DNA of 57,038 nt from Desulfobulbaceae bacterium UBA2262. Lineage in GTDB: Bacteria > Desulfobacterota > Desulfobulbia > Desulfobulbales > Desulfurivibrionaceae. The DNA is taken from contig DDXK01000102.1 of the NCBI GenBank assembly GCA_002347185.1, positions 1 through 57,038 of the forward strand. The letters are read 5' to 3'. The notes under the pieces are model-generated. The model searched no databases, was not told where the DNA came from, and worked only from the letters and a program-made list of their open reading frames with translations. This document shows positions 9,455 through 53,677 of the stretch, piece by piece (positions within the stretch are counted from its first letter, which is position 1; the number at the start of each line of letters is the position of its first letter). Made by a program: the position numbers and the translations under genes.

Positions 9455-11976
9455 GAGGTCGGCACAAGGCCTTCCCGCCTTGCGTCCTGCGTCTCCGCCC
9501 CTCCGTTCTCCGCATTTTTCGCACCGCCAGGACTGTAGTAGGTCCTGGCGGTTATTTTTTCGCCATCGGAGACGAGGAATATGGTGCCGGCCACCGAGGT
9601 CAGGTGCCACTCTCCTTGCTTCCCGTCGGGTGCTTGTCCCGGTCTGCCCGCCCTCCTGCCGGCAGAAACTATGTGCTGCCTTGCGGCGACGGCGGCCAGA
9701 AATTCCCGGCTGCCGGAGGAGGGGAGGCCGTGATGGGGCATGAGCAGCGCCTGCGCCCGCAGCGGCAGGCCTGCCTCAACGAGCATTTTTTCGGCCGGGC
9801 GTTCGATGTCGCCCGGGAAGAGGAAGCTGTTTGCGCCGTGGCTCAGCTTGAGCACCAGGCCGAGGTCGTTTGCTCTGCCAGGCCCCTTGCCTCCCCGTTC
9901 TGCCCCCGGCGGCTTTCCCTCTGCCGCCAGGTTTGCCAGGCAGGCGATGGTTGCACTCCCCCTTCCGCTTTCTCCATGGAGAAGGTCACCGGCGTGGGCA
10001 ATCTGCACCCGGCAGCCAGCCTCCTCGGCGGCATGGAGAAGCGCGGCGAACTCCGGGTTGTCGGACTCGGTGGTGGCGAGCCAGAGAAGGCGCGGGGAAA
10101 AGCGTTTGAGAAGGAAGGGGATGCCGTTGAAGTGGTCGGCATGGTTGTGGGTGAGGATAATCTGGTCCAGGCGGCGGATATGTCTCTGCCAGAGAAAGGG
10201 GGCGATGATGGCCTCGCCGGCATTGAAGGTTTCCGAGCCGGTGCCGCCGCCGTCGATGAGGGTGACGCTGCCGTCCGGCATTTCGATGACGGTGGCGCTG
10301 CCCTGGCCGACGTCGAGGTAGGAAACCTCGAGCCTGCCCGGCTCTTTTCCTCCCGACGGAGAGGGTTTCCAGCCCGAAAGGAGAAGGAGGAAGGCGCAGG
10401 CGAAGGCGGCCGCCAGCCGCCAGCTTTTCACGGTGAGCAGGGCCAGCGCCAGTGCGAAGGCGGCAAGGAGGGCCAGGGGGGCGGGGGTGGGCAGCCAGAG
10501 GGAGGCGTGGGGAATGGTGGCGAGAAGGGCGGCGCTTTTTTGCGCGGCAAGGAGTGCTGCCGCGCCAATTTTCAGCAGCAACAGGGCCGTGGTCGTGGAG
10601 AGGGGTTCAACGGCCAGGGCCACGAGCCCCAGGGGAAGGGCGCAGAAGCAGAGCAAGGGGGAGACCAGAAGGGTGCTTATCGGGCCAAGGAGGGAGAGAC
10701 GGTTGAAGTGAAAAAGAGAAAAAGGGGCAGTGGCGACAAAGGCGGCCAGGGAAACAACCAGGCCGGAGGCAAGCCACAGTCCTGCTTTTTTTGCCATGTT
10801 CCACTTTTGTTCTGGTTCCAGGTGGAAAAGCCGCAGGCGGGGCGCGGTAAGGACAATTGCCGTGGTCGCCGCGAAGGAGAGCTGGAAAGAGGCGGTGAAG
10901 ATGCTCAGGGGGCTGACGAAGAGGATCAGGCCGGCGGCAAAGGCGACATTGTTGAGGCTTGACCACTGACGGTCCAGGAGGATGGCCGCCATGAAAACCG
11001 TGGTCATGAGCAGGGCTCTGAGCACCGGGGGCTGGAAGCCGGCAATGCCGGCATAGAAGAGCAGCAGGGGCAGGGTCAGGCCGAGGCTCAATTTTCGGGA
11101 AGGGAAATAAAGAAATATTTTCGGAACCAGGCGCAACCCAGCCTTGAAAAGGGAGGAGGCGAGAAGGGCAAGCACGGCGAGGTGCATTCCGGAAATGGCC
11201 AGCAGGTGCATCAGCCCGGTCTCCTTGAACAATTCAAGGGTGGTCTCGTCGATGCCGCTGCGGTCGCCGATGAGAAGGGCGCTGTAGAGGCCGGCCGTTT
11301 CCGGGGGGAGCCCATGCTTGAGAAATGTCGCGCTGCGCTGCCGCCGCTCTTCGAAAAAAGAGAGATTCGTCCCGACTCCCCCTGCGGGAAGGGGAAGGAT
11401 GGGGAGTATGGCTGCCTGGTCGGCAATCCAGCCGGTCACGTGAATGTTGTCGGCGGCAAGGTAGCCCTGGTAGTCAAAGGCGCCCGGGGTGCCGAAGTTT
11501 CTGGGCCGGGAAAGACGGCAGCGGGCCAGGTACTGCTCGCCGGGCCTGAGCCCGGGCAGCTCGGCCGCGTTGACGGTCAGACGGGCCAGGCCGGTGGCCG
11601 GCAGAATGCGCGGCTCTCCCGGGGGCAGCACACCGGTGGCGGCCACGATGATTCTGGTTTTTCCCTGGCGGGATACCGGCATGTCGCGCAATCGGAATGT
11701 TAGGCTAATTTCCTGATTTTCCAGGATAAAATTTTGCAGATGGTGGGGGGGCCAGCTGGGAAGGGCGACGCCTGCGCCGGCGCCGAAGCCGGCGCAGGCG
11801 AAGAGACAGAAGAGGGAAAGGACGCGCGGGCCGGGGGAGCGGAGGCGCAGGAAGGCGGCGGCCAGGAGGAGCGACGACAGCGCTGTCAGCCAGGAGAGGT
11901 GCAGGGCGGCCGGCCAGGACTGACTGCAGAGAATTCCGGCGGCCAGGCCGCAAACCGCGGTGGAAAAGGAGAGCAT
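9451..11976 (-). CDS. comEC: DNA internalization-related competence protein ComEC/Rec2
   Basis: 841 aa; polytopic membrane core plus C-terminal metallo-beta-lactamase motif (ILTHNHADH); overlaps the convergent pilT stop by 4 nt. Confidence 0.85.
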   Translation of the reverse strand: MLSFSTAVCGLAAGILCSQSWPAALHLSWLTALSSLLLAAAFLRLRSPGPRVLSLFCLFACAGFGAGAGVALPSWPPHHLQNFILENQEISLTFRLRDMPVSRQGKTRIIVAATGVLPPGEPRILPATGLARLTVNAAELPGLRPGEQYLARCRLSRPRNFGTPGAFDYQGYLAADNIHVTGWIADQAAILPILPLPAGGVGTNLSFFEERRQRSATFLKHGLPPETAGLYSALLIGDRSGIDETTLELFKETGLMHLLAISGMHLAVLALLASSLFKAGLRLVPKIFLYFPSRKLSLGLTLPLLLFYAGIAGFQPPVLRALLMTTVFMAAILLDRQWSSLNNVAFAAGLILFVSPLSIFTASFQLSFAATTAIVLTAPRLRLFHLEPEQKWNMAKKAGLWLASGLVVSLAAFVATAPFSLFHFNRLSLLGPISTLLVSPLLCFCALPLGLVALAVEPLSTTTALLLLKIGAAALLAAQKSAALLATIPHASLWLPTPAPLALLAAFALALALLTVKSWRLAAAFACAFLLLLSGWKPSPSGGKEPGRLEVSYLDVGQGSATVIEMPDGSVTLIDGGGTGSETFNAGEAIIAPFLWQRHIRRLDQIILTHNHADHFNGIPFLLKRFSPRLLWLATTESDNPEFAALLHAAEEAGCRVQIAHAGDLLHGESGRGSATIACLANLAAEGKPPGAERGGKGPGRANDLGLVLKLSHGANSFLFPGDIERPAEKMLVEAGLPLRAQALLMPHHGLPSSGSREFLAAVAARQHIVSAGRRAGRPGQAPDGKQGEWHLTSVAGTIFLVSDGEKITARTYYSPGGAKNAENGGAETQDARREGLVPTS

Positions 11977-15881: not shown

Positions 15882-15957
15882 GGCCCCTTCGTCTAGCGGT
15901 CTAGGACGCTGGCCTCTCACGCCGGTAACACGGGTTCGAGTCCCGTAGGGGTCACCA
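15882..15957 (+). tRNA. tRNA-Glu (anticodon CUC)
   Basis: 76 nt. The cloverleaf folds by eye: acceptor GGCCCCT/AGGGGTC, anticodon loop C-T-CTC-A-C, T-arm GGGTTCGAGTCCC, encoded CCA. Close to the E. coli tRNA-Glu scaffold. Confidence 0.9.
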
Positions 15958-16059: not shown

Positions 16060-16064
16060 GTAAA
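16060..16064. repeat. putative 5-bp target-site duplication (left copy), GTAAA
   Basis: GTAAA immediately outside the TGTAAATTTGCA... terminus; an identical pentamer lies at 53673..53677. Confidence 0.5.
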
Positions 16065-16072
16065 TGTAAATT

Positions 16073-16115
16073 TGCACGTAAAATCAGAAAATTTGCAAAT
16101 GAAACCAGAAAATTC
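16073..16115 (+). repeat. attR-type end: two adjacent transposase-binding-site repeats
   Basis: TGCACGTAAAATCAGAAAATT followed directly by TGCAAATGAAACCAGAAAATT. The second copy matches the reverse complement of 53465..53483 at nearly every position. Confidence 0.6.
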
Positions 16116-16192: not shown

Positions 16193-16762
16193 TCACCACT
16201 CCACCACAGATACTTCTTCCGTTGTGGCCGCAGCCTCCAAGGCATCCTCGCGCGCCTGTCTCCTGCCGATAAGCTGGCCGCTCACCACGGAAAACGCCGC
16301 AGCCTTGGCGAGCACGCGGCCGGCTAAATCGGAGACGGCAAGGCCGCGCTCGGATGCCAGGGCGGCCAGCAAGGGGGCGTCCGCAGATGGGTCGACAGAG
16401 AGCGCCTGTGCCTCTTGTACCTGCTGTGGCCAGCTGCTGATCTCGCCGCGCGGGTACATCGAGGTGATCGCCGCCAACGATGCGTCGCAGGCGACATTTA
16501 TTGCCGCCAGGCGCTCGGCTTTGGCCTGGGCAAGCTGCTCCTCAGCAGCGGCCGAAAGTGGCAAAGAACCAACCAGAACAACGCTGGCGCCATCACAGGC
16601 AGGCAAGGTGGCCGGGGCGCCAGCAGGGTCCACCGCGACGAAGTAGCCACTGGGCTGGTATTCGGCCGGCACCTGCCAAACCGTAACAATAGCCTCTTTC
16701 GCCAAGCGCGGCAACTCCTGGGTGTGTGCGCCGACGCTCAAGACATGATCGCTGATCTGCAT
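16193..16762 (-). CDS. tail fibre assembly / chaperone-like protein (DUF4376-like C-terminus)
   Basis: 189 aa; C-terminal pattern SSWPQQVQEAQAL...LAGRVLAKAAAFSVVSGQLIGRRQAREDAL..TEEV resembles phage tail-fibre assembly proteins; last gene before the phage end; its start overlaps the RT stop by 25 nt. Confidence 0.55.
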   Translation of the reverse strand: MQISDHVLSVGAHTQELPRLAKEAIVTVWQVPAEYQPSGYFVAVDPAGAPATLPACDGASVVLVGSLPLSAAAEEQLAQAKAERLAAINVACDASLAAITSMYPRGEISSWPQQVQEAQALSVDPSADAPLLAALASERGLAVSDLAGRVLAKAAAFSVVSGQLIGRRQAREDALEAAATTEEVSVVEW

Positions 16763-17790
16763 GGGACTCCTCCTTTATAATTGATGTCGTTCAGGATGCC
16801 CGCCGTGGTCCGGTGGGCGTTGCAATGCTTCGCATACGCCAGAAAACTATCCACCCGCAACGGGACGGCGGCGGGCGAAACCTGGCCTTCGTCGGTAAGC
16901 CGCGCCAAAGTCCGCAGCTCTCGCCTGGCCCTGGCGATATTCTTCTTCCGCGGCAGGATATGGGTCGGCCAGGTCCTGTAGCCGCAAAAGTCCACCCCCC
17001 GGGCGACCGGGAAGATGGCCGTTTTCGGGTTCAGCGTCAACCCGTGCCGACCGGCAACCTCGCGCATGGCCGCAAGGCTCTCGCTGGCCGCAGTCTTGTT
17101 TGGCGCCACAACCACCGTGTCGTCCATATAGCGGACGTACCCCCGCACCCCCATGCCGTCGTTCAACTCATGGTCAACCTGATTCAGCAGGATATTGGCG
17201 GACAGCTGGCTGGTCAAGGCGCCGACCGGCAGGCCAACCCCGCCATCGTGCCCATAGGCGGCAGAGATCCGGCGCCACAAGGCCAGCGTCTTCTCGCAGG
17301 AGATAACCCGCTCGATGGCGGCAAAAAGCACGTCGTGGCGGATGCTGGCGAAATAGCTCTTGATGTCCGCCTTCAATATATAAGGGCTTGGGTTGTTTCG
17401 GCATGAGGCGCGCAAGAGTGCCTGAACCGCGGCAACCGCCCGCTGCGCTCCCTTCCCGCGCCGACAGGCATAGCTGTGGCAAATAAAGGTTTTCTCGAAA
17501 AGCGGTTCCACAACCCGTACCAGCGCGTGATGAACGATACGATCCGCAAACGGTGGCGCCTGAATATCCCGCTGCTTTGGTTCAAACACCCTAAAGCTTC
17601 TGGCCTTGCCTGGCTGCCAGCTCTCCCACACCAGATGGTTATGGATATTCAGCAGGTTCTCCTCTAGCCGCGTCGAAAATTCCGCCACCTCTCTGCGATA
17701 ACGTTTTCCTTTGCGGGCAGCTAGGTAGGCCTGCCACAGGTTGTCGAAGTCCACAATTCTTGCGTACAGGTTGTTATGCGTCTTTGGCAT
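16738..17790 (-). CDS. DGR reverse transcriptase
   Basis: 350 aa from ATG 17790 (MPKTHNNLYARI...). RT motifs include YMDD (GYVRYMDDTVV) and the DGR-type VGALTSQ ([ILV]GxxxSQ) motif. The ORF-track extension to 18021 is just the TR read in frame. Confidence 0.9.
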   Translation of the reverse strand: MPKTHNNLYARIVDFDNLWQAYLAARKGKRYRREVAEFSTRLEENLLNIHNHLVWESWQPGKARSFRVFEPKQRDIQAPPFADRIVHHALVRVVEPLFEKTFICHSYACRRGKGAQRAVAAVQALLRASCRNNPSPYILKADIKSYFASIRHDVLFAAIERVISCEKTLALWRRISAAYGHDGGVGLPVGALTSQLSANILLNQVDHELNDGMGVRGYVRYMDDTVVVAPNKTAASESLAAMREVAGRHGLTLNPKTAIFPVARGVDFCGYRTWPTHILPRKKNIARARRELRTLARLTDEGQVSPAAVPLRVDSFLAYAKHCNAHRTTAGILNDINYKGGVPCRSAIMS

Positions 17791-17952
17791 GCTGTTCCTT
17801 TTTTTATGAAAAATGGTGCCGTCAACCACGTTCGCAAGTGCTACTTGCCGCTGGCGGCTGTTTATCTTTGGCCTTTTAGGCCGGGACGAAAACCCCGAAG
17901 GACAGGCTCTGGATGAGCGCCCTTGAGCGCCACAACTACTGGCCGTTCTGTC

Positions 17953-18074
17953 TTTCGCCAGACGAGCCCCGACGTTCGTGCTCGTGTTCGACGCTGCGTT
18001 GTTGCAATTGACGTTCCACAACCCCGCATTCAGGTCGTTGTTCCAATTGCCACCGACGATCGGGAAATACTCGC
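17953..18074 (-). repeat. DGR template repeat (TR)
   Basis: About 122 bp, non-coding, between avd and RT. Collinear with 18508..18629 at a constant offset of 555. Read in the VR frame it gives EYFPIVGGNWNNDLNAGLWNVNCNNAASNTSTNVGARLAK (10 AAY Asn codons). Ends are +/-3 bp. Confidence 0.9.
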
Positions 18075-18095
18075 GTTAACAGGTTCTCTCCCCCA

Positions 18096-18488
18096 CTACT
18101 GGTGCACTGCTCGTATCCAGCCGCCCACCATTCTGCCTATTTCGTTTACATGCTCCGTCCACACCTGGTACCTGTGGGGGTTGATATACTTGAGGCGCAC
18201 CGACTTGCGAATCCAGATCCGCAGCACCTCTATTTCGACATCAAGATCCTGTAGCGTGGTTTTCTTGTGGTAGCGTTTCCATGCCACCACGGCTAGGCGT
18301 TGAATCTCGGCCAGTGTTCTCCTTATGTCATGGCACAACAGGTGGCGTTCTGCCCTCGAATACTGCTGCAACACCGTGTGGGTGTATGCCTCCAACTCTT
18401 CTATCTTCGCCAGCAGCACCGCGTACGATTCCGGGGGAGCATGGCGTGGCTTGTACCCCCGGCTCTCGCCGGGGGTTTCATTACCCAC
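18096..18488 (-). CDS. avd: DGR accessory variability determinant (Avd-like four-helix-bundle protein)
   Basis: C-terminal part ...IEELEAYTHTVLQQYSRAERHLLCHDIRRTLAEIQRLAVVAWKRYHKK...LRIWIRKSV...HVNEIGRMVGGWIRAV resembles Avd / 23S-IVS-type proteins and sits between VR and TR. Start uncertain: GTG at 18488 or GTG at 18419; the ORF-track start at 18584 overlaps the VR. Confidence 0.7.
   Translation of the reverse strand: MGNETPGESRGYKPRHAPPESYAVLLAKIEELEAYTHTVLQQYSRAERHLLCHDIRRTLAEIQRLAVVAWKRYHKKTTLQDLDVEIEVLRIWIRKSVRLKYINPHRYQVWTEHVNEIGRMVGGWIRAVHQ
18456..18475 (-). other. GC-rich hairpin downstream of VR (candidate DGR homing-enhancer cruciform)
   Basis: On the coding strand: CCCCCGGC GAGA GCCGGGGG, a perfect 8-bp stem with a 4-nt GRNA-type loop, 27 nt past the fibre stop codon. 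Confidence 0.6.
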
Positions 18489-18501
18489 AAGACATGACAC
18501 A

Positions 18502-21072
18502 TTACACCTTCGCCAGACGAGCCCCGACGCTCGTGCTCGCGTCCGACGCCGCGCCGCCGCAACTGACGTTCCACAACCCCGCACTCAGGCCGTTGCTCCA
18601 ACTGCCACCGACGATCGGGAAATACTCGCCAAGGGCAAAATACTGATAATCCGGCGCGGTTGCGTCTGCGTTGCTGGTTGGTCCAGTGTCTCCAATAAAC
18701 ACATCATCGTAGTTGAACCCGGCCCCTACCCCATCCATAAAGGTTGTGGGGTAGATGGTTCCGTCCGCAGCAGCCCGTTTGCGACCGGTATCCACCCAGG
18801 TTTTATTGCCGTTGCGGTCCCACAGGTTAATATAGCCGGTGGTGGGCACGGTCTTCAGACCATCCATCCACTGCCAGACATTCCCCCATAGCCCCACGAT
18901 ACCGCGATAGGTGGCCTGGGCCACATCGGCGGCATCCACATTGGCTGCGCTTGAGGTGCTTACCCGGCCCATTCCGGTTTTCTCCTGGCTGTCCATGGTG
19001 GCGTTTTCCACCAGATACAGCCACTGAATAGCGGACCATTGAAAAATGGACCAGAGCATAAACCCGGTTACCCCACCGGTATTGCGGGCCGCCGCCTCAG
19101 TCTGAAAGGTTGTGAGGCTCTTTGATACTGCAGGCAGTACCCCAGACACTGATTTCAGCTTGGTGCCGTCGGAACTGGCCTGGTATTTGCCGACGTAGAT
19201 CTGATCGATGTCGGCTCCTGCATTGCGGAAAGCCGGGTGGATCTCAAAGCCGGACACCGGCTGATCGCTAACCCACCACGCTTCCTTGCCGGCGTTGACG
19301 CCCGAGGCGATCACCTCCCGCTTATAGTAGAACTTCGGCACCTTGACCATGGCCTGGCCGTCGATGGTCACGTCCTGCATCCCGCCAAAGACCGGGTGGG
19401 CGGCAAAGTAGGCGCTGCCCGGTGCGGCGATGGTGCCGCCGGCCTCGTCCACCCAGACCCAGGTGCCTCCGTCACCGCCGGTGGCAGTGCAGCAGACCCC
19501 GACAATGTTGGCGAACACCTGTTTGGTGGTGATCTTGACTTCCGGCGAATACTCGGACCAGCCCGTGGTCGCGCCCTTATGTCTGGCTCGCAGGAAGTAG
19601 ACCGACTGCCCGGCCGCCAGCACCCCGGCCGGCACCACCTTGCTGAGCAGATTCGCGGCATCCTCGCCAGAATCCCAGTGCGGCAGATCCCAGGCGCCGG
19701 CGGCGGTGCGGATCTGCCACTGGCTGGCGGCATGGGTATCGGTGCCGCCGCTCACCGCGAAGGCCCCGGTTTGCATGGTGGGCTGCTCGACGACATCGAC
19801 GGCGTTGTTGGCAGGGCTCACCAGGGCCGGGGCCTGCACGTAGACGTAGCTGGCCGCGGTGCTGAAGCTGGTGGCGGCCGACCAGGCGGACCAGAGGCCG
19901 GCGACATCCTGCACCCGGGCGCGGAGGTAAAAGGTCGTCCCCTCGGCGAGCACCCCGGCTGGCATGGCGTAGGTAAGCGCAGCGGGCAAATAGCCGGTGT
20001 CGCGCACCAGGCTGGCAAAGGCGGAGTCGAGGGCCACCTGAAACTGCACCGACTGCTGGGCGGTGCCGCCTGGGCTGAAATATCCAGCGATGGCGAGGGT
20101 GGGGGTTTCCATGACCCCGGTCGCCAGATCGGCCGGGGCGGAGACGGTTGGGGCGGAGGGGGCCATGGCCGGGTTGATGTAGCCGCCCAGGCCGGTGGGG
20201 GCGGAAAGCGCCACGATGTGCTGGACCGTCATGTCTTCAGCCGCGACATCGAGCCGCAGGCGGGTCTCTCCTTGAAAGGGGACGATGTACTCATAGTCGG
20301 CCATCCCGGCGGCAATGTCGCCGCCCTGCCGGCGCAGCGACCAGATAACCTCGGTCCAGGCCGTATGGCTGGCATCGCGGAAATAGAGCCGCGCCTCGCC
20401 GCTGTTGAGGCTGCGGCGAACCACCACCGCGCCGCCGGTCTGGTCGTCCTCCAGGATTACCAGGCCGGACAGCCAGATGTTGCCGACGGCCGCCTGGGCG
20501 ACATGGTCGATGCGCGGCATGGAGCAACGGGTCACCACCCCGGCGCCCAGGGTGCGCGGCAGGTTCTGTGAGATCCGGATCCGCTGGGCGCTGAGCTTTT
20601 CGGTCACCAGGACCAGGAAGTCATCCCCGGCGTCGTCCGCCACCACGTAATATTCGCCGGTGCGGATGGCGCTGGTGTCGGCGACATCTATGGAGTCGTC
20701 GCCGCTCACCCCCTGGACGATGGCGACATCCGCCATGTCGATCAGGGTGTAGCCGGGTCGGAACAGCTCGAACTCGATCTTGTTGTCGCGGTAGAGCCAG
20801 TCCAGGCTCACCGCCTGCTGCACGGAGATGGCCGAGGCCTCCTCAAGCGTGCCGGTGATCTCCTCGATGGTGTCGATCCGCGCGCCAAGCGAGGAGGCCA
20901 TGCCCCGAGCCTCCTCCACCTCGTCGGCGAATTGCTTGAGGTAGGTGGTGCGGTTGGCCAGTTGTTTGGCCTGCACGTTGGCGATGCCGTTTTCTCCACC
21001 CAAAACCGGGTCGGTGGTCTCGATCTGGTAGATTCCTTCCTCGTAGACTGAACTCTCTGTCACGTTTGCCAT
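18502..21072 (-). CDS. tail fibre / receptor-binding protein, DGR target (C-terminal CLec/FGE-sulfatase-like fold)
   Basis: 856 aa. It has a P2 gpH-like N-terminus (GIANVQAKQLANRTTYLK), two tandem ~90-aa repeats (..FYLRARVQDVAGLWSAWS.. / ..YFLRARHKGATTGWSEYS..) and a C-terminal WGNVWQWMDG...GGSW motif typical of DGR variable proteins. Confidence 0.85.
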   Translation of the reverse strand: MANVTESSVYEEGIYQIETTDPVLGGENGIANVQAKQLANRTTYLKQFADEVEEARGMASSLGARIDTIEEITGTLEEASAISVQQAVSLDWLYRDNKIEFELFRPGYTLIDMADVAIVQGVSGDDSIDVADTSAIRTGEYYVVADDAGDDFLVLVTEKLSAQRIRISQNLPRTLGAGVVTRCSMPRIDHVAQAAVGNIWLSGLVILEDDQTGGAVVVRRSLNSGEARLYFRDASHTAWTEVIWSLRRQGGDIAAGMADYEYIVPFQGETRLRLDVAAEDMTVQHIVALSAPTGLGGYINPAMAPSAPTVSAPADLATGVMETPTLAIAGYFSPGGTAQQSVQFQVALDSAFASLVRDTGYLPAALTYAMPAGVLAEGTTFYLRARVQDVAGLWSAWSAATSFSTAASYVYVQAPALVSPANNAVDVVEQPTMQTGAFAVSGGTDTHAASQWQIRTAAGAWDLPHWDSGEDAANLLSKVVPAGVLAAGQSVYFLRARHKGATTGWSEYSPEVKITTKQVFANIVGVCCTATGGDGGTWVWVDEAGGTIAAPGSAYFAAHPVFGGMQDVTIDGQAMVKVPKFYYKREVIASGVNAGKEAWWVSDQPVSGFEIHPAFRNAGADIDQIYVGKYQASSDGTKLKSVSGVLPAVSKSLTTFQTEAAARNTGGVTGFMLWSIFQWSAIQWLYLVENATMDSQEKTGMGRVSTSSAANVDAADVAQATYRGIVGLWGNVWQWMDGLKTVPTTGYINLWDRNGNKTWVDTGRKRAAADGTIYPTTFMDGVGAGFNYDDVFIGDTGPTSNADATAPDYQYFALGEYFPIVGGSWSNGLSAGLWNVSCGGAASDASTSVGARLAKV
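18508..18629 (-). repeat. DGR variable repeat (VR)
   Basis: Last ~41 codons of the fibre gene (EYFPIVGGSWSNGLSAGLWNVSCGGAASDASTSVGARLAK). There are 14 mismatches to TR, all at TR adenines. Confidence 0.9.
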
Positions 21073-34519: not shown

Positions 34520-35746
34520 TTACTCTCTCCCGTACACCAGCATCCCCACGCGCTGTTTTTGCAGGTATCCCGGACGAACGGCCATCACCGTCCAGGCCTC
34601 CATCTGCCCCCTGCGCGCCTGGGCCACCAAGAGTTTGCCCGCCAGCTTCCCCGTCTCGACAGCCTTGATAACTCGCGTCCTCAGCACCACCTGCCCTGTC
34701 CCCTTGTGCTGCTCGAACGCTGTCCAGACCTCGAACGGGTCTAAAAAAAGCTCCCAGAGAAACGGCAGGTATTGCGATCTTGCCGGGTCGATGTGCAGGG
34801 CCAGGGCTTCGGCGTTGACATTGATCGCGCCCCCGCCAGGCAGGCGGAACACCTGCTCGGCGCCGCCGATCTCCGCCGCGATGAGGCGCCTGAGCTCCTG
34901 CCTGTCCGTGACCTTGCGCCCGATGCTTGCCCTGGCTTTATCCAGGGGGATCATCGTCGGCCGGCCATGGCTCGACCAGTCGCCGTCCGTGAGCCTGCTC
35001 CAGGCTCCCGCCTTGGCTGCCTGCCATGTTTCCATCGCTTCCGCCGACAACCGCCGCCCCCAGGCCGCGGTGCCCGGGTTGTAGGCGAACCCGGGGTCAA
35101 TGCCTTTCGGCACCCGTACCGTGCGCGGGCTCGGGCCGCGCACGCCGACAGCCTTCTCCTCCCACTCGATCTTGGGCGCCTGGCTCACGGCGAGGCCCAT
35201 CCGTTCGGCGTCCGCCGCGCTGATCATCCGCTTGCGGCACTTGCAGCCCCACCCGTTCTGTGGGGTATGCGTGTCCCACCATGGGTCGTCCAGGGGCAGG
35301 ACCAGACCATCCCAGGCAAGATGTTCCGGGCGGGGGTCCTGGCTGCCGCCGTGCCGGTAGAGGCCGTAGGGCCGCCGTTTGCGCAGCTCCGGGTCCGCCA
35401 TCTGCGCTTCACGGCCAGCCGAGTAGCTTTGCCGCAGGTTGGTTTCGTAAATGACGCGGGTGCGCCAGTTGCGGCCGCCCTTGTAGCTCCAGCCCCGGCG
35501 CTCGACAATGGCGTCGAAGTCCCGGCGGAACTCCTGGAGCGTCGCGCCATCGGCGATGGCCTTATCCACCGCGGCCCGCAGATCGGCGAGCAAATCGTCC
35601 TTCATCGCCCCGGCCACGACAAAGGCCCGGCTGTGCATGCCTTCCCAGAGGTCGGTCCAGGCCCTGGTCGGCAAGTTGACCTTGTCCCGGAAAAACTCGA
35701 TCTGCTCCGCAAAGGGCAGGCTGCCGTAGCGCGCTTCCCCGGCCAT
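34520..35746 (-). CDS. Mu F-like minor head protein (gp30 / SPP1 gp7 family)
   Basis: 408 aa; LPFAEQIEFFRDKVNLPT..W.D......H..AF.VAGA......L.DL..A...A...G.TL..FR.DF. Confidence 0.85.
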   Translation of the reverse strand: MAGEARYGSLPFAEQIEFFRDKVNLPTRAWTDLWEGMHSRAFVVAGAMKDDLLADLRAAVDKAIADGATLQEFRRDFDAIVERRGWSYKGGRNWRTRVIYETNLRQSYSAGREAQMADPELRKRRPYGLYRHGGSQDPRPEHLAWDGLVLPLDDPWWDTHTPQNGWGCKCRKRMISAADAERMGLAVSQAPKIEWEEKAVGVRGPSPRTVRVPKGIDPGFAYNPGTAAWGRRLSAEAMETWQAAKAGAWSRLTDGDWSSHGRPTMIPLDKARASIGRKVTDRQELRRLIAAEIGGAEQVFRLPGGGAINVNAEALALHIDPARSQYLPFLWELFLDPFEVWTAFEQHKGTGQVVLRTRVIKAVETGKLAGKLLVAQARRGQMEAWTVMAVRPGYLQKQRVGMLVYGRE

Positions 35747-41928: not shown

Positions 41929-42294
41929 CTACTCCGCCGCCGGGTGGGTGTAGGTGCCGGTGCGGCGGATGGCGGGGAGGACTTCGTGATTGACCCAGCG
42001 CTTGAACGCCTTGGCCTGCGGTTTGCGCGAAGTGTTGACCAGGGAGTATAGGCCAGACTCGTTGACGCCCCATACTTTCTGCACACCGCCAGGGGTGTTC
42101 AGTTGAATCGAACCCCTTTCGTCATCGTCCAGCCGACCCATCGCGTCCGAAATGTTACCTATCCCCAGGATGTCGCAGACATCCCTGGCCACCCACCAGG
42201 GCTCGCCATGCTCGTCCTTGATGATTCTGGCCGGCACGTCGCCGAAGAACAGATTGTGGTGCTCAACTACCTCGATCTCATGCTGCTTGTTCAT
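41929..42294 (-). CDS. BRO-N domain protein (antirepressor-like N-terminal DNA-binding domain only)
   Basis: 121 aa from ATG 42294; ...WWVARDVCDILGIGNISDAMGRLDDDE......GG.Q....VNESGLYSLV..SRKP.AK.F..WV..EVLP.IR.TG BRO-N signature. Confidence 0.8.
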   Translation of the reverse strand: MNKQHEIEVVEHHNLFFGDVPARIIKDEHGEPWWVARDVCDILGIGNISDAMGRLDDDERGSIQLNTPGGVQKVWGVNESGLYSLVNTSRKPQAKAFKRWVNHEVLPAIRRTGTYTHPAAE

Positions 42295-42450
42295 GGTACT
42301 CCTCCTGTTTTGGAATTTTCCCGCCCATGCGCTTCCAAACGCAAAAAGGGCGGAACCGTGCGGGTTGGAAGACCGGGGAGACAGGCAACCCGGCGAGCCC
42401 GAAGGCTCCCCGCACGGCCCGCCCAAAGGGGTTTGCCGTGCCGTGGACGC

Positions 42451-42533
42451 AAAAAAAACGCCGAACAAAAAGTGGCGGTGCGTCCGCCTGTCCCATTCTG
42501 GCTTCCAAACCCGGCCACGGATTTTGCCGTGGC
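42451..42533 (-). ncRNA. candidate small RNA or terminated leader upstream of the BRO-N operon
   Basis: Minus strand: TTGACA (42564..42569) - 18 nt - TACTCT (42540..42545). Then a 5' hairpin GCCACGG caaaat CCGTGGC (42514..42533), then GGCGG acgca CCGCC (42474..42488) followed by ACTTTTTGTTCGGCGTTTTTTTT. Confidence 0.3.
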
Positions 42534-42618
42534 ATGGGTAGAGTAGTCCGAATGGCGGACGTTTGTCAAATCTTTTTCGCCCCACTGGCCTGGACAAGGG
42601 CCATGGGGAGCGGTTATC

Positions 42619-45764: not shown

Positions 45765-45925
45765 AAGTACCTCCAGCAGCGGCTAACAAATCAATCAACT
45801 CGGACAGGCATTCCGCTGCGCTCCATGCCTGCCGGTTATTTCAGTCGTTATAAGCGGCTGCTCGTCAGACCCAGGCCGCCACGCCTGGATGACCTGGGCA
45901 CAAGCCCAGGTTTCGCGGGGGGGGG

Positions 45926-48377: not shown

Positions 48378-49100
48378 TCACCCCCTCAGGCTCTGTTTGA
48401 TCGCCAGCTTGGTCAGCTCCAGGTTCGGAGCCGCCGCCCGCTTGGCGTTCATGATGTTGGCCAGGTTTTGCAGGTCGCGCTTGATCACCCGGAAGCAGCC
48501 CGCTGAGTTCCGCAGGAGCAGTTCGGCCACGTCTTCCGGCAGGCCGAGGCCGGCCGCTTCCCTGGCGAAGACCACCGTGTCCGCCACGTCCAGCGCCTCG
48601 AACTGCAACAGCTGGAAGGTGCGGTTCCACATGCGGCGCACCTGTTTCAGGTGGTGCTCAAGCTCCTCCTCGCCGATCAGGACGAAGGGGGCGGTGGAGA
48701 TGTCTGACAGGTCGCGGACCAGCTCCAGGTGCATCCTGGGCAGCTTTTCGATCTCCTCGATGAACACCGGCCGGCCGCCCTGCTGGTTGAGCGCCTCGAT
48801 CACCGCCGCGAAGGCCGGGTCCTTCCGGTGCGGGATCCTCTTGACTCCCAGCTCGTAGCAGAGCTTCTGCAAAAAGCCCAGTTCGCTGTGGCGCCAGATC
48901 GAAAGGCAGCGCACGAAGGTGCATTCGTTGTTACCTGCATACCATTGCGCCGTCCTGGTCTTGCCGCGCCCGGCCGGCCCGACCACCGCCGCCAGTCTGC
49001 CCTCCCCGGCGGAGAGGGCCAAGGCGTCGGCCATGGCCAGAAAGTTGCGGACATTGCGAACCTTGTTGACAAATTTCGGCGAAACACTTACTTCTTTCAC
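48378..49100 (-). CDS. MuB-like AAA+ ATPase / DNA transposition protein B
   Basis: 240 aa; Walker A GPAGRGKT; position immediately after the transposase. Confidence 0.8.
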   Translation of the reverse strand: MKEVSVSPKFVNKVRNVRNFLAMADALALSAGEGRLAAVVGPAGRGKTRTAQWYAGNNECTFVRCLSIWRHSELGFLQKLCYELGVKRIPHRKDPAFAAVIEALNQQGGRPVFIEEIEKLPRMHLELVRDLSDISTAPFVLIGEEELEHHLKQVRRMWNRTFQLLQFEALDVADTVVFAREAAGLGLPEDVAELLLRNSAGCFRVIKRDLQNLANIMNAKRAAAPNLELTKLAIKQSLRG

Positions 49101-49129: not shown

Positions 49130-51301
49130 TTACTCTTCGGCGGCTGCGTCACCAGCCGCCTTTTCTTTTTGCCCGTAGACGATGGCCAGCGCCGCGCGGC
49201 GGCTGGTCCAATAATCATCGCGCTTGTATTCGTCGCTCTGCTCGTACAGCCGCAGGAATGTCCGGTGCTCTGCGGAAAGCTCCTCGCCCTTCATCTCCAT
49301 CTCCATCAACCGCCCGTAGCGGTCGGACTCGCTCAGGTAGGCCAGCTCCTCATTGAGCGCCGCCTGCTCGGCCTCGGCAAACATCCGCCCGGCCTCTTCC
49401 GCTTCTTCTATCCTCGCCGCGATCTCTTCCCGGCTGAGCTGCTTGTGCTCTATGGATTTCGGCTCAGCCTTCGGCGTCATGCCAAGCATGCCGATCTGCT
49501 CCATCTGGAGCTGATGGGCCGGCATGACCTCCTGTTCCAGCAACGCCTTGGCGCTGCCGGCCGCGGCCCGCTCCTGGCCGCGCTTCTGCTCGATGTGCCG
49601 GCGCAGGGCCGCTTTGTCGTCCTCGTCGCCCAGATGGGCCGCCGCCGGGTGAACCTTCTCCATGGGCGTCGCCTCGCAGAGGTATTCCCCGTCCTGGTCG
49701 TACACATATATGGATGCCTGGTCGAGCAGGTCGAAGCGAATGGTCACCTTGTGGCGGCGGTTGGCGAGGGCCGGGTGGTAGTAGTGGCGGCCCTGGAAGG
49801 TGATGCCGTTGCGGTGGATGTGCTTGATCTCCACGCTCATCATCAGGAAGGCCAGCTCCGCCTTGTCCACCCCAGGTCCCCGCCCAGCCTCGAATACTTC
49901 CTGGGGGCAGGCTCCGGCCAGGTGGCCGCGCTGGGGACGGCTGGCGTAAACGTCGAACCAGGCCGCAATGGCCATGTGCGCCTGCTCCATGGTGACACAG
50001 AAGCCCTCGCCGTGCGCCTTCTCATGGATGCGGCGGTGGACCGTCTCGCCGCGCATCATCCTGGGCGGCTTGCGCTCGATGGACGTGCCGGTGTAGGTCG
50101 GGCACCAGCGCTCCAGCTCGGCGAAGGTGCCGAAGAAGCGCTCCACGGTCTTGCTCTGCCCGTGGTAGGGCCAGGCGAAGATGGTCTGGCAGCCGATCCG
50201 CTCGTAAAGGCCCGAGTAACCGGCCTCGTCGAACCCGGCCGACCCGGCGAAAAACCTGCTCTTGAAGGCCTTGCCGTTGTCCAGATAGACCACCCTCGGG
50301 TATTTGCCCAGGCGCAGGATGGCGCGGCGCAGGGCGCTGGAGATGGCCTGCGTGTTTTCGGTGGGCATCAGCTCCCAGCCCAGGGGCATGTTGCTGGCCA
50401 TATCATAAAAGAGAATCATGGCCATGCGTTTTGGCTTGCCTGTCCAGGGATTCAGGATTTCAAAATTGAGGTTGTGGCCGTCCGCCACGATCACGTCGCC
50501 CACATTGAGCAGGCTCATGTCGCGCTCGATGTACATGGCGCACTTGTCGTTCCAGGCCTTGGCCCCTTCGCGGGTAAAAACCCAGAGGTCGTAGTGGGTC
50601 GAGACCCAGCCGCGCAGCCAGCGGCGATAGGTGGCGGCGCTGTGGCCGTTGGCGATCCCCTTCACCCGCATGGCCGCGTGTGCCATACGGATTGCCTCGG
50701 AGACGCGGGGGCGGTTTGGCCGCAACACGCAGCGCAGCAGGATGTCGGTCTGCTCAGGAGTGAGGCCACAAGAGCCACGGCGGGCGCGGCCGCGCAGGTC
50801 CGCCAGGGCGAATATGTCGCCGCCGTGCGTGGCCAGCTTCCGCCGCCACTCCTCGATGGTCTTCCAGGAGGCCACCGGCCCGAGCTGCTTATAGAGATGC
50901 GGCCATGGTACACCTGAGTTGTAGGCGACCACGAACTCGTCGCGGGCCTGGCCCCGCCTCCCCCATGGGGATGAGGCCAAGTGTCTCGTGTAGAGGCGCA
51001 GCAGGTCGGCCCTGGCTATGGCCCCCTGGATGCGGGTTTCGTCCAGGGCGGGCAGCGGGGCCGGGGGAGCGGCAGGGTCTTTCTCGGCGGCCAGGGCCAC
51101 GGGCAAGGGTTGGGCGGCGAGCTGACCGCGGACCTTGCGCAGCTCGATCTTGGAGAGCGGCAGGGAGGCAAGCTCGTAGACGTTGCCGCCGCCCTTGACG
51201 CGATCGACCGGCTCCGACCAGGATGACGCCGAGGCCCTTTTGCGGACGGCACGCTCTGATATCCCAAGGGCGGCTGCTATCTCTGCGGTGGTGACCTTCA
51301 T
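49130..51301 (-). CDS. MuA-like DDE transposase
   Basis: 723 aa; N-terminal HTH (TTAEIAAALGISERAVRKRA), rve-type core (..VIVADGHNLNF...ILFYDMASNMPLGWEL...VVYLDNGKAFKS..) and a Mu-transposase C-terminal region. Confidence 0.9.
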   Translation of the reverse strand: MKVTTAEIAAALGISERAVRKRASASSWSEPVDRVKGGGNVYELASLPLSKIELRKVRGQLAAQPLPVALAAEKDPAAPPAPLPALDETRIQGAIARADLLRLYTRHLASSPWGRRGQARDEFVVAYNSGVPWPHLYKQLGPVASWKTIEEWRRKLATHGGDIFALADLRGRARRGSCGLTPEQTDILLRCVLRPNRPRVSEAIRMAHAAMRVKGIANGHSAATYRRWLRGWVSTHYDLWVFTREGAKAWNDKCAMYIERDMSLLNVGDVIVADGHNLNFEILNPWTGKPKRMAMILFYDMASNMPLGWELMPTENTQAISSALRRAILRLGKYPRVVYLDNGKAFKSRFFAGSAGFDEAGYSGLYERIGCQTIFAWPYHGQSKTVERFFGTFAELERWCPTYTGTSIERKPPRMMRGETVHRRIHEKAHGEGFCVTMEQAHMAIAAWFDVYASRPQRGHLAGACPQEVFEAGRGPGVDKAELAFLMMSVEIKHIHRNGITFQGRHYYHPALANRRHKVTIRFDLLDQASIYVYDQDGEYLCEATPMEKVHPAAAHLGDEDDKAALRRHIEQKRGQERAAAGSAKALLEQEVMPAHQLQMEQIGMLGMTPKAEPKSIEHKQLSREEIAARIEEAEEAGRMFAEAEQAALNEELAYLSESDRYGRLMEMEMKGEELSAEHRTFLRLYEQSDEYKRDDYWTSRRAALAIVYGQKEKAAGDAAAEE

Positions 51302-53342: not shown

Positions 53343-53464
53343 GGGAAAGGTGGGCGGGTAATATCGCGGCAAACCGCTCATTATCAAGCTCGCCAGTTAC
53401 CAGTGGCATCGCAGCCGCGACGGAAAAATAATCTACCCATTCATGGCCGTTTATTGATCACAAA

Positions 53465-53658
53465 TTTTCTGATTTCATTTGCAAAAAAAGGCGTTTTTGA
53501 GGCCAAAACCGAAAAAGTTTCTGGTATTTAATTTTTCACGAAATTTTTTTATTCACCAGCACGCCGCCCCCAAGCAAACCCGCGCCAGTCCTCAAAAAGT
53601 CCCACAAAAAACTCATAAAAGTTTCATCAAATCCAGCAAAATAAAGTTTCTGGTTTCA
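53465..53658 (-). repeat. attL-type end: three spaced transposase-binding-site repeats
   Basis: Reverse complements: TGCAAATGAAATCAGAAAATT (53465..53483), AAATACCAGAAAC (53517..53530) and TGAAACCAGAAAC (53646..53658). One terminal site plus two internal sites about 120-190 bp inside, Mu attL-like spacing. Confidence 0.6.
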
Positions 53659-53672
53659 TCTGTCCCCCTATA

Positions 53673-53677
53673 GTAAA
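53673..53677. repeat. putative 5-bp target-site duplication (right copy), GTAAA
   Basis: Identical to 16060..16064; immediately outside the ...CCCCCTATA terminus. Confidence 0.5.

Follow-up and report, generated by a model that had tools for sequence, protein, structure and literature searches.

Organization of the locus

We analyzed a stretch of 57,038 nucleotides (nt) from Desulfobulbaceae bacterium UBA2262 (GTDB family Desulfurivibrionaceae; GenBank assembly GCA_002347185.1, contig DDXK01000102.1, positions 1 to 57,038), here called the window, which carries a diversity-generating retroelement (DGR) cassette next to the tail fiber gene of a prophage. All positions given below are those of the window; the genes of the cassette all lie on the minus strand, which is the coding strand. 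Read on this strand, the order is target gene, avd, template repeat (TR), spacer, and reverse transcriptase (RT) gene, with the variable repeat (VR) at the 3' end of the target gene. The parts of a DGR are all present, namely, a TR/VR pair, an accessory variability determinant (Avd), an RT, a target with a CLec fold, a hairpin after the VR, and a structured spacer RNA. An earlier reading made from the letters of the window (the sequence-only reading) had proposed a complete DGR in the mtd-avd-TR-brt order, and all of the parts were found in that order. Our analysis indicates that the cassette is very probably a bona fide DGR of the type known from Bordetella phage BPP-1, located at the tail fiber end of an approximately 37.6-kb Mu-like prophage in an uncultured Desulfobulbales host.

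The repeat pair and its differences

A repeat search of the window revealed one long direct repeat of 121 nt, at positions 17954 to 18074 (TR) and 18509 to 18629 (VR), with a spacing of 555 nt and an identity of 89%. The VR (minus strand) forms the last ~41 codons of the target gene. The TR (minus strand) is noncoding, begins 21 nt past the avd stop codon, and contains 31 adenines and, when read in the VR frame, 10 AAY (Asn) codons. The collinearity of the two repeats at an offset of 555 nt had been noticed in the sequence-only reading and was confirmed by a computational alignment, which is ungapped; a recount of the Asn codons likewise gave 10.

Base-by-base comparison located 14 mismatches between the two repeats (TR positions 17953, 17975, 17985, 17988, 17995, 17999, 18000, 18002, 18003, 18008, 18029, 18035, 18041, and 18047), a list identical to the one drawn up in the sequence-only reading, which had assigned all of them to TR adenines. 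Every mismatch is a plus-strand T in the TR and a C in the VR, that is, an A-to-G change on the coding strand; there are no gaps, and no mismatch falls on a TR position other than an adenine. Position 17953 lies at the border of the homology (positions 17950 and 17951 differ too), so that this difference is a boundary case, while the other 13 are secure. That all 14 mismatches fall on the 31 adenines among 122 positions has a hypergeometric probability of 3e-10. Twelve of the 14 changes alter the encoded amino acid (N to S, G, or D; D to G; T to A), while the sole two third-position adenines of the TR are both changed, synonymously. The lack of any non-A difference over 121 nt, taken together with the change of both synonymous adenines, points to a recent mutational event, for which selection alone is an insufficient explanation.

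At its 3' end, the VR has an adenine-free, GC-rich stretch of 18 nt, GTCGGGGCTCGTCTGGCG, in common with the TR. This stretch is the candidate initiation of mutagenic homing (IMH) site, whose difference from IMH* sets directionality in DGRs. When the TR was slid along both strands of the window, with any change allowed at A, only the known VR was recovered; no second VR or remote target was found in the window.

Relatives and the direction of change

A search for RT homologs returned 37 loci in genomes and 36 in viral sequences, the most similar RT being 68% identical. Of the 50 loci that were analyzable, about 46 have a TR immediately upstream of the RT and, farther upstream, a VR that pairs with it, and the differences between the two repeats fall overwhelmingly on TR adenines. 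The closest uncultured relatives are loci L001 and L038 to L041 together with L002, L043, L044, L046, and L054 (metagenome-assembled genomes [MAGs] of Alphaproteobacteria and Phycisphaerae, and IMG/VR contigs), as well as L077 (Logan SRR943327). Their RTs are 67 to 68% identical to that of the window, and their VR-TR offsets are 544 to 553 nt, compared with 555 nt in the window. They share with the window the TR scaffold, the hairpin position, the structure of the spacer RNA, and a 189-amino-acid (aa) gene after the RT, and L077 has 85% DNA identity over the 3' end of the fiber gene and avd. They differ from the window in the mixed A-to-G, A-to-C, and A-to-T changes of their VRs and in their host taxa. 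No near-identical copy of the element was found among the relatives in the collections searched.

The five closest loci (L001 and L038 to L041) have essentially one TR and five different VRs, which are altered only at TR adenines. This is the opposite of an invariant VR accompanied by a varying TR, the pattern that the sequence-only reading had named as speaking against a DGR. Furthermore, the sites that are changed in the window are mostly A in the TRs of the relatives. Because A is kept in these TRs, and because a shared TR goes with differing VRs, the direction of change is from TR to VR. The reverse direction, a C-to-T deamination of the TR copy, was rejected, since the TRs of the relatives retain A at the changed sites.

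The target tail fiber gene

The target gene (18502 to 21072, minus strand) encodes a tail fiber of 856 aa, as judged from its open reading frame (ORF), its PHROG matches, and an AlphaFold2 (AF2) model submitted to Foldseek. The protein consists of a fiber attachment region (aa 1 to 56), which is matched by PHROG tail fiber families, Ig-like repeats in the middle, and a receptor-binding domain with the CLec/FGE fold (aa ~520 to 856), within which phrog_5302 (tail protein) matches aa 571 to 854. The motifs WGNVWQW and VGGSW are present. An AF2 model of aa 520 to 856, with 46 homologs as input, reached a predicted local distance difference test (pLDDT) score of 96.9 and a predicted template modeling (pTM) score of 0.95. 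Foldseek searches with this model gave TaqVP (PDB 5vf4; E value of 2e-14) as the first match, followed by PvdO, TvpA, Mtd (E value of ~1e-2), and EgtB; TaqVP, TvpA, and Mtd are all DGR variable proteins. TaqVP 5vf4 is also the only PDB match of the target by sequence, although a weak one (E value of 8e-4).

The model thus supports the assignment of the C-terminal domain to the CLec/FGE fold as used by DGR targets. In the sequence-only reading, the VR had been placed at the last ~41 codons of an 856-aa target, in a CLec/FGE-like domain marked by WGNVWQW...GGSW, with modeling of the C terminus suggested as a check; the pLDDT of the model and its matches to TaqVP, TvpA, and Mtd agree with this placement. 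Across the 46 homologs the C-terminal scaffold is constant (VGGxWxxxxxAGLWxVxCxxAASxxxxxxGARLAKV), and the hypervariable columns coincide with the AAY codons of the window's TR. The repeat ends exactly at the C terminus of the CLec-fold variable domain.

The middle of the fiber gene contains an internal repeat (19593 to 19634 and 19923 to 19964; spacing of 330 nt; 71% identity over 42 nt), and the Ig-like Pfam family PF25788 matches aa 336 to 406, in the region of this repeat, below its threshold. The middle of the fiber seems to be composed of tandem Ig-like modules of about 110 aa.

A CLec domain 76% identical to the C-terminal domain of the target is also encoded in an unrelated phage (loci L078 to L080; ENA ERZ925102 and related contigs). 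There, it is part of a 347-aa protein (gene at 10001 to 11044 of L078) whose gene adjoins that of a 3813-aa SLT/LPD38 protein, and no Avd or RT was found within 10 kb downstream of it. The presence of this domain in an unrelated phage suggests that the receptor-binding domain is common to several phage lineages, whether or not a DGR is nearby.

Avd, the reverse transcriptase, and the neighboring gene

The avd gene (18096 to 18488, minus strand) encodes, as called, a protein of 130 aa with a GTG start, the exact start being uncertain. The protein matches PF22296 bAvd (89.6 bits; cutoff of 40) and NF033474 DivGenRetAVD (109.5 bits; cutoff of 80), so that the Avd-like protein previously noticed between the VR and the TR is above the curated cutoffs of both Pfam and NCBIfam.

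The RT gene (16738 to 17790, minus strand) encodes 350 aa. The two motifs that had been reported for an RT downstream of the TR were both located and are intact, namely, YMDD (YxDD) at 17119 to 17130 and VGALTSQ ([ILV]GxxxSQ) at 17206 to 17226. The protein matches Pfam RVT_1 (E value of 1.6e-21) and is 37.8% identical to the annotated brt product of BPP-1. Its best PDB match is 8ub7 (E value of 1.8e-53), which we take to be the BPP-1 RT (its label in the PDB table is just “Reverse transcriptase”), compared with 6.6e-23 for group II intron RTs. Profile searches, also suggested in the sequence-only reading, showed that none of the NCBIfam models for group II introns, retrons, and defense RTs reaches its cutoff with this protein; the matches to group II intron, Drt, and retron models are all subthreshold. 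An identity as a retron, group II intron, or defense RT was rejected because no NCBIfam cutoff was reached and 8ub7 is by far the best PDB match. Judged by its motifs and its matches, the protein qualifies as a DGR-type RT.

Upstream, no stop codon interrupts the RT frame across the spacer and the greater part of the TR, which yields a mechanical ORF of 427 aa (16738 to 18021, minus strand; TTG at 18021). This extension is probably an artifact of high GC content, but it could lead gene-calling programs to extend the RT wrongly into the TR.

The RT gene is followed by a gene of unknown function (16193 to 16762, minus strand; 189 aa; PF27318 HI1402_helical and phrog_2618), which overlaps the RT stop by 25 nt. 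Its homologs are found directly after the RT in the clade of relatives with 68% RT identity whereas those of the Bordetella/Castellaniella clade separate the target gene from avd. This shifting position suggests that the gene travels with the fiber module. It is probably not a DGR component, and its product may be a fiber chaperone.

Structured RNA and DNA elements

A GC-rich hairpin (18455 to 18476, minus strand; stem ACCCCCGGC-GAGA-GCCGGGGGT) follows the VR at a distance of 31 nt, where it falls within the 5' part of the avd ORF as called. It has a predicted free energy of -21.7 kcal/mol and a GNRA-like loop. Most relatives have a GC stem of 7 to 9 bp with a 4-nt loop (GAGA, GATA, GAAA, or GGGA) at the same position after the VR, with different stem sequences; the hairpin of L077 is identical to that of the window. 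Since the stem sequences vary while position and form are kept, it is the structure rather than the sequence that is conserved. We take this hairpin to correspond to the hairpin/cruciform that BPP-1 requires for target recognition, which is reported to lie nearer to the VR in BPP-1. By this analogy, it is a candidate target recognition hairpin or cruciform.

The spacer between the TR and the RT start (17791 to 17953, minus strand; 163 nt) resembles the Sp part of DGR RNA. An alignment of 22 relatives shows conserved blocks and 25 predicted base pairs, 19 of which have compensatory changes. Pairing is found in 89% of the alignment cells, versus 42 to 49% in slid-partner controls; the covariation score is 0.558, versus 0.10 to 0.15 in controls, and none of 500 shuffles reached the observed values. 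This covariation indicates that the DGR RNA is under structural selection in the clade, and the copy in the window fits the shared structure. By analogy with known DGRs, the spacer qualifies as a structured RNA that would support cDNA synthesis, with a putative role in priming.

The Mu-like prophage

The sequence-only reading had placed the cassette in a Mu-like transposable prophage, and the gene content of the window bears this out; transposable phages of this kind form the proposed “Saltoviridae.” A MuA-like transposase gene (49130 to 51301, minus strand; PF09299 Mu-transpos_C, 63.5 bits, cutoff of 21.7; weak rve match) is adjoined by the gene of a MuB-like AAA ATPase (48378 to 49100, minus strand; AAA_22, 54.1 bits). 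Mu head and regulatory families are matched above their cutoffs (Portal_Mu, 344 bits; Phage_Mu_F, 47.9 bits; Mu-like_Pro, 347 bits; Mu-like_gpT, 426 bits; Mor, 34.5 bits), as is DUF3164, and the prophage also carries sheath, tape measure, and baseplate J/I genes. A peptide-pattern search for relatives of the MuA-like protein in IMG/VR gave no matches.

The DGR-proximal end of the prophage is marked by an array of two tandem ~21-nt copies of a terminal motif, TTTGCAnnTnAAAyCAGAAAATT (16071 to 16114), and a motif search located inverted copies at the other end (53461 to 53485 and 53644 to 53662). The inverted arrays bound about 37.6 kb and are probably transposase-binding sites. A candidate 5-bp target site duplication, GTAAA, is found at 16060 to 16064 and 53673 to 53677, but chance alone would give about 12 5-mer matches of this kind, and the ends do not form a clean TG...CA pair. 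A tRNA-Glu(CTC) gene (15882 to 15957) lies about 100 nt outside the DGR-proximal end; no att-type repeat linking it to the prophage was found. The RpoD encoded in the DNA flanking the prophage is 93% identical to the RpoD of a Desulfurivibrionaceae MAG, which identifies the host as an uncultured member of the Desulfobulbales.

Three other features of the prophage were observed. A type II hammerhead ribozyme (45852 to 45918, minus strand; RF02276, 59.3 bits, gathering score of 37) with an intact core (CUGAnGAG, GCGAAAC, and GUC) is located between minus-strand genes of the early region and could cleave the early polycistronic transcript. A match to C4 antisense RNA, the P1/P7-type immunity RNA family (42345 to 42429, minus strand; RF01695, 53.5 bits, gathering score of 45), overlaps a roughly called minus-strand ORF (41929 to 42597). 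The Mu F-like minor head protein (34520 to 35746, minus strand) has a C-terminal PBECR2 domain of the Barnase/EndoU/colicin-like nuclease type (70.4 bits; cutoff of 27.1) so that a putative nuclease or toxin domain would here be joined to a component of the virion.

Proposed mechanism

On the basis of homology with BPP-1, we infer the following cycle. The avd-TR-spacer-RT region would be transcribed, and a complex of RT and Avd would bind the structured spacer RNA and reverse-transcribe the TR, faithfully except for misincorporation opposite adenines. The cDNA would replace the VR at the 3' end of the tail fiber gene, guided by the GC-rich adenine-free VR end that is shared with the TR and by the GC hairpin downstream of it. 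In this way, the ten Asn (AAY) codons and a few other A-containing codons would be recoded on the ligand-binding face of the CLec/FGE-fold domain. The receptor specificity, and hence the host range of the phage, would be altered, and tropism switching would be the outcome.

Activity, mutation spectrum, and alternative explanations

Several results weigh against the interpretation of the cassette as a working DGR of the BPP-1 type. The Pfam FGE-sulfatase model does not match the target, so the fold assignment rests on the AF2 model, the Foldseek matches, and the weak sequence match to 5vf4. Exact-protein look-ups returned four contigs on record with this RT, all of which encode an identical target protein; the 90% protein clusters of the element have one member each, and 53 nt of spacer DNA was not found in JGI metagenome contigs. 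With a single VR on record for the element, current activity is inferred and not demonstrated. The single VR and the lack of further copies in the JGI metagenomes would suit a real DGR that has become quiescent or is a recent fossil, its VR being the frozen product of past retrohoming, as would the fact that expression cannot be proven from a genome sequence. A promoter and terminator scan near the cassette gave nothing above shuffled expectation and no convincing consensus promoter upstream of avd and the TR. However, the four contigs may be reassemblies of one population consensus, the ORFs are all intact with their catalytic motifs, and the zero non-A mismatches over 121 nt indicate that no decay has occurred since the last event. 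Both the spacer RNA and the hairpin agree with the structures that are conserved in the relatives, and close relatives (L001 and L038 to L041, and L077) are demonstrably diversifying. We consider quiescence rather unlikely, and on account of its intact parts, the absence of non-A mismatches, and the diversification in its relatives, it is plausible that the element is currently active.

The changes in the VR are all A to G (14 of 14), with none A to C and none A to T, whereas the pooled spectrum of the relatives is 282 G, 113 C, and 142 T (52.5% G). The probability of 14 G in 14 changes under this spectrum is 1.2e-4, and it is likewise to be set on the unfavorable side. It could be explained if the element were a transition-only DGR, by exclusive dC insertion opposite A or by A-to-I editing of the TR RNA (inosine being read as G), and the changes of L043 are also all A to G (9 of 9). 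If true, this would limit each AAY codon to Asn, Asp, Ser, or Gly. Yet the probability is only about 6e-3 when 47 loci are allowed for, and we noticed no gene for a deaminase in the cassette. Compared with the window's TR, the closest relative, L077 (85% DNA identity, same hairpin), has 7 A-to-T changes besides 7 A-to-G changes, and other members of the clade with 68% RT identity have mixed G, C, and T. Moreover, according to a 2025 preprint, C misincorporation, which results in A-to-G changes, is dominant in most sequence contexts for the BPP-1 RT in Escherichia coli (bioRxiv 10.1101/2025.08.18.670894). The A-to-T changes of L077 and this published dominance weaken the case for an intrinsically A-to-G-only RT, and a transition-only element appears very unlikely to us; the pattern is probably the result of sampling or selection on a G-leaning spectrum. 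A single type of transition on one strand could in principle also be produced without any DGR, by an ordinary duplication followed by strand-biased C-to-T deamination of the TR copy next to an unrelated RT, to which the subthreshold NCBIfam matches to group II intron, Drt, and retron models might be added. This explanation is effectively refuted. The TR adenines are ancestral, as they are A in the TRs of the relatives, so it is the VR that changed; relatives also show A-to-C and A-to-T changes; and a curated Avd is encoded between the two repeats, the second of which stops exactly at the end of the CLec-fold variable domain. The RT matches 8ub7 about 30 orders of magnitude better than it matches group II intron RTs, and it brings no NCBIfam RT model to its cutoff.

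Comparison with known systems

The cassette resembles that of BPP-1 in its order (target with a 3' VR, avd, TR, spacer, and RT), in the adenine-specific changes, in the CLec-fold C-terminal variable domain on a tail fiber, and in the GC hairpin after the VR. It differs in that its phage, a Mu-like myovirus that has a sheath gene and baseplate J/I genes, is not of the BPP-1 phage type, in that the CLec domain of its 856-aa fiber is nearer to TaqVP (E value of 2e-14) than to Mtd (E value of ~1e-2), and in that its sole observed VR has A-to-G changes only. TaqVP of Thermus aquaticus (5vf4) is the best structural match (Foldseek probability of 1.00; TM score of 0.55 to 0.57), and in both proteins the VR is at the C-terminal end of a CLec/FGE fold. 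However, the sequence identity is about 21%, and TaqVP is a cellular DGR target rather than a phage fiber.

The arrangement of the prophage is shared with Mu-like phage isolates. At least four isolates of ~36 to 40 kb (BalMu-1, YPCBV-1, ACA1/ACA2, and vB-Vv-ZX4290) have their RT homolog at the far right of the genome. Annotation was checked for YPCBV-1, and the position of the RT was the feature compared for the others. Chromohalobacter phage YPCBV-1 (PMC9769972) carries in its left part repressor/HTH (helix-turn-helix) genes and the genes for a Mu transposase and an AAA ATPase, followed by Mu-type head genes, and the last three genes on the right encode an FGE/CLec-type target, Avd, and RT; its target is short, with 349 aa compared to the 856-aa fiber in the window. 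In Bacillus phage BalMu-1, Pseudoalteromonas phages ACA1/ACA2, and Vibrio phage vB-Vv-ZX4290, the RT homolog is at the extreme right end, as in the window. The RTs of these isolates are only 37 to 40% identical to that of the window, their hosts are Gammaproteobacteria and Bacillota, and the window has the 189-aa gene as an extra gene after the RT.

The sequence-only reading had held that the combination of replicative transposition with a DGR deserves attention. This combination has already been published for YPCBV-1 and others, and a special interest of its occurrence here is not supported. DGRs in Mu-like phages of Firmicutes are attributed to Toussaint 2013 (cited as reference 30 in PMC5883640), and hankyphage is a transposable temperate Bacteroides phage that carries a DGR (PMC6199706 and PMC12135933). 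The hankyphage and the Firmicutes phages are, like the phage in the window, transposable temperate phages with DGRs, but they belong to distant lineages with other hosts and morphotypes and are a precedent for the combination rather than close relatives. In a group of Desulfovibrio piger prophages with Mu-like proteins, Avd, RT, and a fiber target with an FGE domain are present as well (PMC12724379).

The element in the window is thus a clean new example of a type that has been described, in a home, the transposable phage, that has also been described. DGR-based fiber diversification and DGRs in Mu-like transposable phages are both established, and no new question is opened by it. The A-to-G-only VR bears on how the host context shapes the mutation spectrum of DGRs. 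The cassette is a well-formed phage DGR from an uncultured, Desulfurivibrionaceae-like Desulfobulbales host whose cis elements (TR, VR, post-VR hairpin, and covarying spacer RNA) are readable, and it could serve as a comparison point for the BPP-1 model and for prophage annotation in sulfur-cycling bacteria.

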